In this document: piece by piece, positions 469 through 782 of the stretch
Layout: the number at the start of each line of letters is the position of its first letter
Position numbering within the stretch: position 1 is the first letter of the stretch
Assembly (NCBI GenBank): GCA_001797465.1
Contig: MGPQ01000002.1
Coordinates: forward strand, 32,410-96,409
DNA: 64,000 bases
Source of the DNA: Deltaproteobacteria bacterium GWB2_55_19
GTDB taxonomy: Bacteria; Desulfobacterota; GWC2-55-46
Direction: 5' to 3'
The notes under the pieces: generated by a model
Database searches by the model: none
Seen by the model: only the letters and a program-made list of their open reading frames with translations
What the model was told of the DNA's origin: nothing
Made by a program: the position numbers and the translations under genes

Positions 469-506
469 CTGATTATTCTGATTTATAAGAATTGATGGAG
501 GCTCGC

Positions 507-782
507 ATGACAAGGAAAAAGAAGGCCCTGGAAGGCGCGTGTTGCGCGCCTGACGCGAAGGGGGCGTGCAGGGTGGATTCCATCATAACCGTTGACGAGC
601 GCGGCCAAACGGTGCTCCCCAAGGAACTCAGGGAGAGGGCCGGGATAAAGCCCGGCGATAAGCTCGCCGTGGCGAGCTGGGAAAAAGACGGCAAGATCTG
701 TTGCATAACCCTTATAAAGGTCGAGGACCTCGTTGAGATCATCAAGGACAGGCTCGGCCCCATAATGAAGGAGATGCTCTGA
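507..782 (+). CDS. AbrB/SpoVT (MazE-fold) family DNA-binding protein with an N-terminal cysteine-rich motif; candidate regulator of hgcAB
   Basis: ORF track gives 492..782 (TTG start). ATG at 507 has GGAGG 6 nt upstream. Swapped-hairpin motif VDERGQTVLPKELRERAGIKPGDKL. N-terminal EGACCAPDAKGAC. Stop overlaps the hgcA start (TGATG). Confidence 0.7.
   Translation: MTRKKKALEGACCAPDAKGACRVDSIITVDERGQTVLPKELRERAGIKPGDKLAVASWEKDGKICCITLIKVEDLVEIIKDRLGPIMKEML

Follow-up and report, generated by a model that had tools for sequence, protein, structure and literature searches.

How is the expression of the mercury methylation genes hgcAB controlled, and by what signal? Control of these genes and the native role of HgcAB are long-standing questions in mercury biogeochemistry, and the only hgcAB regulator tested so far is an ArsR-like one, in one Pseudodesulfovibrio strain. 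The question is raised by a 64,000 nt stretch of the genome of Deltaproteobacteria bacterium GWB2_55_19 (contig MGPQ01000002.1, positions 32,410 to 96,409; hereafter the window), in which a small gene (507..782, + strand; 91 aa) is the first of an hgcC-hgcA-hgcB operon. Our study places this gene in the HgcC family and suggests that proteins of this family are, on balance, probably autorepressors released by a thiol-binding metal(loid), As(III)/methylarsenite (MAs(III)) and/or Hg(II). The evidence comprises a candidate operator conserved in the promoters of the family, conserved cysteines and a genomic linkage to either hgcAB or the arsenite methyltransferase gene arsM.

Against the NCBIfam equivalog NF040962, ‘HgcAB-associated protein HgcC’, the window protein (MTRKKKALEGACCAPDAKGACRVDSIITVDERGQTVLPKELRERAGIKPGDKLAVASWEKDGKICCITLIKVEDLVEIIKDRLGPIMKEML) scored 117.8 bits (E=1.4e-34, cutoff 70), and as the whole profile (positions 1-70 of 70) aligns to residues 20-89, it is a full-length member. 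Two AbrB domain models were also above cutoff, TIGR01439 (38.5 bits vs 28.3) and PF04014 (33.1 bits vs 24.7). A search of 5.8 billion proteins returned 924 homologs at E<=1e-3, all of ~85-100 aa and some already named ‘HgcAB-associated protein’ by NCBI, and an exhaustive search of 50 %-identity representatives gave 224 clusters at E<=1e-10. The homologs, together with the NF040962 and PF04014 scores, indicate that 507-782 is not a chance open reading frame (ORF). Its likely start is the ATG at 507, 5 nt ahead of which the sequence reads as a Shine-Dalgarno GGAGG (497-501, + strand); the TTG at 492 is merely the start of the longest ORF (96 aa). An identical protein is encoded on 14 contigs in public data, among them GCA_003455015.1 and contigs of aquifer groundwater metagenomes, and the independent gene calls on those contigs give an hgcC of 91 aa, an hgcA of 358 aa with a 1-nt overlap and an hgcB of 97 aa. 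A first-pass annotation of this DNA had described a 92-aa protein; the ORF is real, and its length from ATG 507 is 91 aa.

Sequence profiles identified the N-domain of SpoVT (2RO5, E=9.5e-5) as the nearest solved relative, along with Sulfolobus AbrB-type proteins (Sso7c4; 5ITJ and 2L66) and AbrB (1YFB). An AlphaFold2 (AF2) monomer model, built from a 52-sequence alignment, had a mean predicted local distance difference test (pLDDT) score of 76, with a core at ~90, residues 1-20 as a disordered tail and a helix of lower confidence at 72-90. The top PDB matches in Foldseek were SpoVT, AbrB, Sso7c4-like and MazE structures (2W1T, 1YFB, 5ITM and 2K1N; probability 0.9-1.0, with E ~1e-2 for a small domain). 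The protein is thereby divided into a Lys/Cys-rich disordered tail (1-21), an AbrB/SpoVT swapped-hairpin domain (22-71), which has the beta-alpha-beta-beta fold of solved members and in which strands beta-3 and beta-4 span 53-60 and 63-71 of the model, and a C-terminal helix (72-90) that bears an LGP motif. Residues R32, G33, Q34, K39 and R42 are invariant and are the predicted DNA-contact residues; the swapped-hairpin domain and the conserved Arg/Lys in the loop-helix region are shared with AbrB, SpoVT, Abh and Sso7c4. Taken together, the profiles and the model predict that the window protein is an AbrB/SpoVT-fold DNA-binding protein. The earlier description of a swapped-hairpin DNA-binding protein, co-operonic with hgcAB, is supported by the profiles, by AF2 and Foldseek and by the gene overlaps: the hgcC stop (TGA, 780-782) and the hgcA ATG (782-784) overlap as TGATG, and hgcA and hgcB overlap as ATGA at 1855-1858. 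Both overlaps, and the single promoter ahead of them, had been reported in that annotation and are borne out by a reading of the sequence.

The same annotation considered the gene undescribed, which was wrong because NF040962 names the family and Zhang et al. 2023 (PMC10349881) had reported the gene. Those authors found a ‘toxin-antitoxin’ gene (prlF/mazE/abrB, COG2002) immediately 5′ of hgcA in 39 % of their hgcAB contigs and in 8/31 confirmed methylators, and suggested that it may be a regulator. HgcC and the ‘TA/prlF/abrB’ gene of PMC10349881 are the same gene and the protein itself is no different; the Methanocella paludicola protein of that study has 54 % identity to the window protein (E=1e-34) and shares its motifs. 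The window gene is therefore an ordinary full-length member of a family already named and published as a putative hgcAB regulator. The cysteines, the operator, the arsM adjacency and the lack of a toxin partner are all unmentioned in PMC10349881. A literature search for the name HgcC together with hgcA found no relevant paper, and searches for AbrB with arsM and for regions upstream of arsM did not find the HgcC family. The link to arsM, a 9-bp-period operator common to Bacteria and Archaea and a Cys pair in beta-4 appear to go beyond the searchable literature.

To place the family in its genomic context, 185,579 species genomes were scanned, which gave at least 575 loci encoding relatives; all counts of context and operator below refer to the best 80 tblastn loci to the window protein. 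The hosts of these loci, all strict anaerobes, include Thermodesulfobacteriota (‘Deltaproteobacteria’), Nitrospirota, Methanoperedens, Methanothrix, Dehalococcoidia, Aminicenantes, Bathyarchaeia and others. The gene directly downstream is hgcA at 28/80 loci, an arsM-like gene of ~275 aa at 47/80 and another gene at 5/80. Two of the last five are cut by contig ends, and three have one inserted gene (an extracytoplasmic function (ECF) sigma factor, another methyltransferase or a nitroreductase) before hgcA or arsM; overall, 78/80 loci are linked to arsM or hgcAB. Against NF008823 (‘arsenite methyltransferase’, cutoff 263), two representative arsM products scored 366 and 359 bits, and the remaining arsM-like genes match these two by tblastn at >=263 bits. 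The gap between the two genes at the 47 arsM loci ranges from -10 to ~+180 nt and is <45 nt in ~37 of them. The ‘next to hgcAB’ trait of NF040962 thus holds for the window gene and not for the whole family, and the hgcA adjacency that the first-pass annotation had proposed to check is conserved at the 28 hgcA loci and replaced by arsM at the 47. As the AbrB proteins ahead of arsM scored 113-125 bits on the HgcC model, equal to the window protein, the earlier suggestion of Hg(II)-specific sensing is weakened, and an arsenic species is at least as likely a signal as mercury.

A neighbour-joining tree of the proteins required ~6 switches between hgcA and arsM context, compared to 23 with shuffled labels. 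One large hgcA-linked clade comprised Nitrospirota and Deltaproteobacteria, the window included, and at least three more hgcA-linked lineages were nested among arsM-linked proteins, some with 86-97 % core identity to an arsM-linked protein. The arsM context is predominant and apparently ancestral, which favours arsenic species as the candidate signal. One locus of Candidatus Methanoperedens (L020:3529-6656, JAPZAO010000190.1) has the order hgcC-arsM-nitroreductase-hgcA-hgcB on the same strand with short gaps, and here arsenic and mercury methylation genes are found behind one hgcC promoter/operator. Another locus (L033) has the order hgcC, nitroreductase, arsM.

These gene neighbourhoods also bear on the reading of KEGG, COG, JGI and Zhang et al. 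2023, under which the protein is a type II antitoxin (PrlF/MazE) and hgcAB is co-regulated with a toxin-antitoxin module. Database names such as ‘antitoxin PrlF’ and the PF04014 MazE_antitoxin match speak for it, but hgcA or arsM lies downstream at 75/80 loci and no small partner is conserved upstream. No toxin gene (such as YhaV, MazF, Doc or PIN) was found beside hgcC at any of the 80 loci or among its neighbours in the window, and the upstream genes are unrelated housekeeping genes. With no toxin partner, and with scores of 17.3 bits on PrlF NF007429 (cutoff 125) and 17 bits on MazE NF050106 (cutoff 65), the antitoxin reading was rejected and is almost certainly incorrect; our study corrects a misleading label, PrlF/MazE, that public databases and the only paper on the gene attach to it.

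The strongest indication of what the family does is found in the DNA upstream of its genes. TCAG/CTGA cores (TCWGA) occur at 3.74 per 120 nt upstream of 81 family genes, compared to 0.98 in background windows of the same loci, and >=3 cores are present in 91 % of the upstream regions and 7.9 % of the background windows. Successive cores are spaced, centre to centre, by exactly 9 bp (n=148) or 18 bp (n=32), other short spacings being almost absent, and every combination of core orientations occurs, in line with a palindromic C-W-G core. Arrays of >=3 in-register cores number 70 in 584 kb of locus sequence, and 67 of these lie within 160 nt upstream of a family gene; by locus, upstream arrays have >=3 cores at 66/80 and >=2 at 77/80. 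In the window, the candidate operator spans 469..490 (+ strand; CTGATTATTCTGATTTATAAGA), with two CTGA cores (centres at 470 and 479) followed by a degenerate TAAGA (centre at 488), at 9-bp spacing. No other site in the 64-kb window has this three-unit pattern (0.22 expected by chance), and the same layout is seen in the closest relative (L001). A second site, 56482-56495 (TCAGAGGTATCAGA), is the sole strict TCWGA-N4-TCWGA match in the window (0.2 expected by chance) and was set aside as a probable chance match: it falls within a minus-strand ORF (56043-56708), and its spacer is G-rich, compared to the A/T-rich spacers of the family.

The position of the arrays relative to promoters is also fixed. 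The window promoter is of sigma-70 type (439..467, + strand), with TTGACC at 439-444 and TATAAT at 462-467, and agrees with the consensus at 11/12 positions; the first-pass annotation had found this promoter and gave its spacer as 18 nt, where it is 17 nt. It is the sole promoter-like site within window 1-2800, and L001 is arranged likewise. The window array begins 2 nt past the -10 hexamer and extends over the expected start of transcription; counted from where that hexamer starts, its cores stand at +8, +17 and +26, compared to +7/+16 or +9/+18 elsewhere. A TTGAC-N16-18-TAnnnT promoter was recognisable at 39/55 bacterial loci, with cores at fixed offsets from the -10 start. These offsets are -2, +7 and +16 in the main hgcA-linked clade, so that the -10 box is embedded in the array, and +7/+9, +16/+18 and +25/+27 at most arsM-linked bacterial loci. 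At the five archaeal loci with a strict TTTAAATA match, the cores flank the TATA box at -25, -16, -7 and +11. Placement at the bacterial -10/transcription start and at the archaeal TATA box would both fit repression. The conserved operator gives indirect support for DNA binding by the HgcC family, and the autoregulation proposed in the first-pass annotation appears very likely, because the operator is conserved family-wide in the HgcC gene's own promoter. At one locus (L002, JACRCH010000081.1), the segment ‘tataaatcagtataatcagaatattctgattaggagccaccct’ occurs twice in tandem, ~80 nt apart, ~130 nt upstream of the hgcC-like start; the tandem resembles a duplication of the entire regulatory region, ribosome-binding site included.

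What, then, might release such a putative repressor? The 91-aa monomer contains five cysteines. Three, C12 and C13 (codons 540-545) and C21 (567-569), lie in the N-terminal segment GACCAPDAKGAC (codons within 540..569, + strand), and the other two form the vicinal pair C65-C66 (699..704, + strand) in ‘GKICCITLIKV’ of strand beta-4, the hallmark of the family. The vicinal N-terminal pair and third Cys reported in the first-pass annotation are present, and the second pair, C65-C66, had been missed. Among 52 close homologs, C21, C65 and C66 are kept in >=90 %. In a diverse alignment of the window protein with 150 representatives of 50 %-identity clusters (151 sequences), Cys is kept at C66 in 88 %, at C65 in 77 %, at C21 in 68 % and at position 20 in 48 %. 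Of the hgcA-linked proteins, 27/27 have the beta-4 CC and 20/27 the N-terminal CC; the former is also found in 38/47 arsM-linked proteins, and the latter in ~40 % of the diverse representatives. With tail and beta-4 cysteines counted together, 138/141 representatives covering both regions have >=2 and 116/141 have >=3. In these alignments the N-terminal CC is the least conserved cysteine feature and C65-C66 the most conserved; the conservation of cysteines that the earlier annotation had proposed to check holds for the family, and the N-terminal CC itself is variable. Nine arsM-linked proteins, mostly archaeal (L018, L019, L020, L035, L048, L049, L051, L054 and L076), have the beta-4 pair reduced to YC, SC or YS, and in all nine the tail ends in CC.

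The pattern of conservation weighs on a reading in which the protein is an autoregulator without ligand, holding operon expression constantly low, with cysteines that are structural or a by-product of anaerobe composition. The protein has no ligand-binding domain, and many AbrB/MazE-type proteins regulate without small-molecule effectors. However, the C65/C66 positions are Ile/Leu in the solved AbrB and SpoVT structures, compared to Cys-Cys in 77-88 % of the diverse clusters, which indicates that the beta-4 pair is a family-specific acquisition, and C21 lies outside the fold yet is kept in >=90 % of close homologs. This makes ligand-free autoregulation a distinctly improbable account.

A different role for the cysteines, also suggested in the first-pass annotation, would be that of a metallochaperone, possibly in addition to regulation, in which the tail (CCx7C) passes As(III)/Hg(II) to the CC tails of ArsM, HgcA and HgcB. 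Several observations touch on this. The N-terminal extension of HgcA in the window, ‘PCCGPESSCCPPP’, contains two vicinal Cys pairs (residues 11-19, codons 812-838), HgcB has a C-terminal CC at window 2140-2145, CC motifs occur in the otherwise variable N-terminal tails of most HgcA from hgcC-linked loci, and ArsM proteins 3′ of hgcC-like genes begin ‘CC...CC’; flexible vicinal-thiol tails are therefore found on all partners of the module. A chaperone is favoured by these motifs on HgcA, ArsM and HgcB, by a tail (1-20) that is modelled as disordered and is rich in Cys almost throughout the family, and by tight translational coupling to hgcA or arsM, which suggests co-production. However, the tail cysteines are the least conserved and are lacking altogether in 18/141 representatives, similarity to ArsD is absent, and the strongest signature of the family, a DNA operator with invariant DNA-contact residues, would be needless for a pure chaperone. 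A chaperone function is therefore considered unlikely.

The cysteines may also sense a signal other than a metal(loid), such as redox/disulfide stress or an Fe-S cluster, which would tie the methylation genes to anaerobiosis. Thiol modification controls a cyanobacterial AbrB-type regulator, and the five cysteines per 91-aa monomer and the strictly anaerobic hosts are in keeping with such a sensor. However, it would leave unexplained why the family is linked almost exclusively (78/80 loci) to two systems for metal(loid) methylation, no classical Fe-S spacing motif is present, and the variable number and position of tail cysteines suit a soft-metal site better than a cluster. We regard a redox or Fe-S sensor as rather improbable.

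We infer instead that HgcC binds the array as a repressor of its own operon, with a metal(loid) as the effector, arsenic species being the favoured candidates. Binding and repression are attributed to the HgcC protein because the AbrB-type gene is the sole element common to the loci and its contact residues are invariant. In the model that we propose, an HgcC dimer or higher oligomer would bind the TCWGA array with its 9-bp period (window 469-490), and occupation of this array past the -10 box and over the transcription start would occlude the promoter and repress the operon. C65-C66 in beta-4, C21 at the entry to beta-1 and the tail cysteines would bind As(III), methylarsenite and/or Hg(II), and this binding would distort the beta-barrel or the oligomer, so that the DNA is released and the methylation genes are induced. 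Distortion of beta-4 or bridging of subunits would be a plausible way to break a swapped-hairpin dimer or oligomer. Derepression by a metal(loid) is proposed because a small, co-transcribed, thiol-bearing repressor parallels the ArsR of ars/arsM and of ND132 hgcAB, and HgcC may act like an ArsR-type metalloid sensor built on another fold because the same regulator-operator module precedes arsM in many anaerobes.

Several points weigh against this model. C65 and C66 are neighbours in a beta-strand and their side chains should face opposite sides, so chelation by both would need a distortion of beta-4 or an inter-subunit site. Around 10-20 % of diverse members lack one beta-4 cysteine, and compensation for this loss by a CC-ending tail was not significant among the diverse representatives (Fisher p=0.33). 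The window operator, with two perfect cores and one degenerate, is statistically weak alone, and the context and operator counts, drawn from best-matching loci, are no unbiased census. Finally, the effector could be a non-metal signal, e.g. redox state or an Fe-S cluster.

A comparison with known systems shows where the family would stand. Among AbrB-type proteins, AbrB, SpoVT, Abh and Sso7c4 have Ile/Leu at C65/C66, are without the Cys tail and are unlinked to metal(loid) genes. AbrB is not known to have a strict consensus site, unlike the HgcC family with its sharply defined candidate site. MraZ, an AbrB-superfamily repressor of the dcw cluster, has three TGGGN-type repeats with a 10-bp period at its own promoter, and the HgcC-family promoters are similarly overlapped by a short-repeat array of fixed period. 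Unlike HgcC, MraZ consists of two fused AbrB-like domains and has no cysteines, and the MraZ model scored 15.9 bits on the window protein (cutoff 162). ArsD is a small metalloid-operon protein with a C12-C13-C18 site, first described as a weak repressor, and resembles HgcC in its N-terminal vicinal Cys pair with a third Cys a few residues on. It differs from the AbrB-like fold of HgcC in being thioredoxin-like, and it delivers As(III) to the ArsA ATPase; Pfam and NCBIfam profiles found no match to the ArsD fold (PF06953) in the window protein.

A functional parallel may be found in ArsR/SmtB. In ArsR, As(III) sites consist of three cysteines and two types have a vicinal pair (AfArsR C95/C96/C102 and CgArsR C15/C16/C55), and two cysteines suffice for the binding of MAs(III) (PMC11868830). 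Pseudodesulfovibrio mercurii ND132 has an ArsR-like repressor upstream of hgcAB that responds to arsenic and to S-adenosylhomocysteine (bioRxiv 10.1101/2022.10.17.512643). Like ArsR/SmtB, that of ND132 included, HgcC is the product of a small gene at the head of an arsM or hgcAB transcript, with a predicted operator over the promoter; its conserved C21, C65 and C66 include a vicinal pair, as the ArsR triads do, and may form a metal site. The two differ in fold, a swapped-hairpin beta-barrel compared to a winged helix, and in operator, 5-bp cores with a 9-bp period compared to a single inverted repeat of 12-2-12 type. No Pfam or NCBIfam match to the ArsR/HTH_5 domain (PF01022) was found in the window protein, which places HgcC outside ArsR/SmtB, though it may work alike.

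The remaining features of the window describe a compact unit. The hgcA gene (782..1858, + strand; 358 aa) encodes the cap-helix motif NVWCAAGK, scored 401 bits on NF040863 and has its Shine-Dalgarno sequence, GAAGGAG (767-773), within the 3′ end of hgcC. The hgcB gene (1855..2148, + strand; 97 aa) encodes two 4Fe-4S motifs and the C-terminal CC, and scored 114.7 bits on NF040864. Upstream, the cytidylyltransferase-like gene ends in an intrinsic terminator read from the sequence (385..413, + strand; GC hairpin and T6), which is also kept in L001 and isolates the hgcCAB unit from upstream transcription; a scan gave terminator-like sites at 392-408 (+) and 400-385 (-). Downstream, the first terminator-like element after hgcB is a strong hairpin (2557..2592, no strand assigned) of 16 pairs that is flanked by T/A runs and also serves the convergent glnA. 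The 464 nt between hgcB and glnA (window 2149-2612) end in this hairpin and are without a convincing ORF. An Rfam scan of 1-6000 gave nothing at the gathering threshold, only weak matches on the glnA-side terminator (isrJ, 34 bits vs a threshold of 37), and no riboswitch in the 33-nt leader. The gene neighbours are the cytidylyltransferase-like gene, glnA, glnB and plsY, and no arsM was found in the 64-kb window. In the closest genome relative, L001, whose HgcC is 85 % identical, an extra class-I S-adenosylmethionine (SAM) methyltransferase gene (L001:2822-3682) lies between the cytidylyltransferase gene and hgcC; the window, compared over 308-507, is without it. This methyltransferase was ruled out as an ArsM (31 % identity over only 110 aa).

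In summary, the HgcC family is the other widespread candidate regulator of hgcAB, present in Nitrospirota, Thermodesulfobacteriota and many methanogens and their relatives, and the link to arsM, the operator and the beta-4 Cys pair provide a concrete model of how mercury and arsenic methylation may be regulated. The question has been made testable: the operator is narrowed to 22 bp, the candidate ligands to three cysteines and the possible effectors to As(III), MAs(III) and Hg(II). That arsM can take the place of hgcAB is independent support for the connection proposed between arsenic and mercury methylation. A wider and more tentative proposal, which falls a little short of probable, is that the family represents an uncharacterised class of AbrB-fold thiolate metal(loid) sensors in Bacteria and Archaea, using one 9-bp-period operator for arsM or hgcAB. 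If this is true, hgcAB would sit inside an arsenic/soft-metal response regulon and would have been recruited repeatedly into pre-existing hgcC-arsM modules, with the hgcC-arsM-hgcAB arrangement of Methanoperedens as a surviving intermediate.

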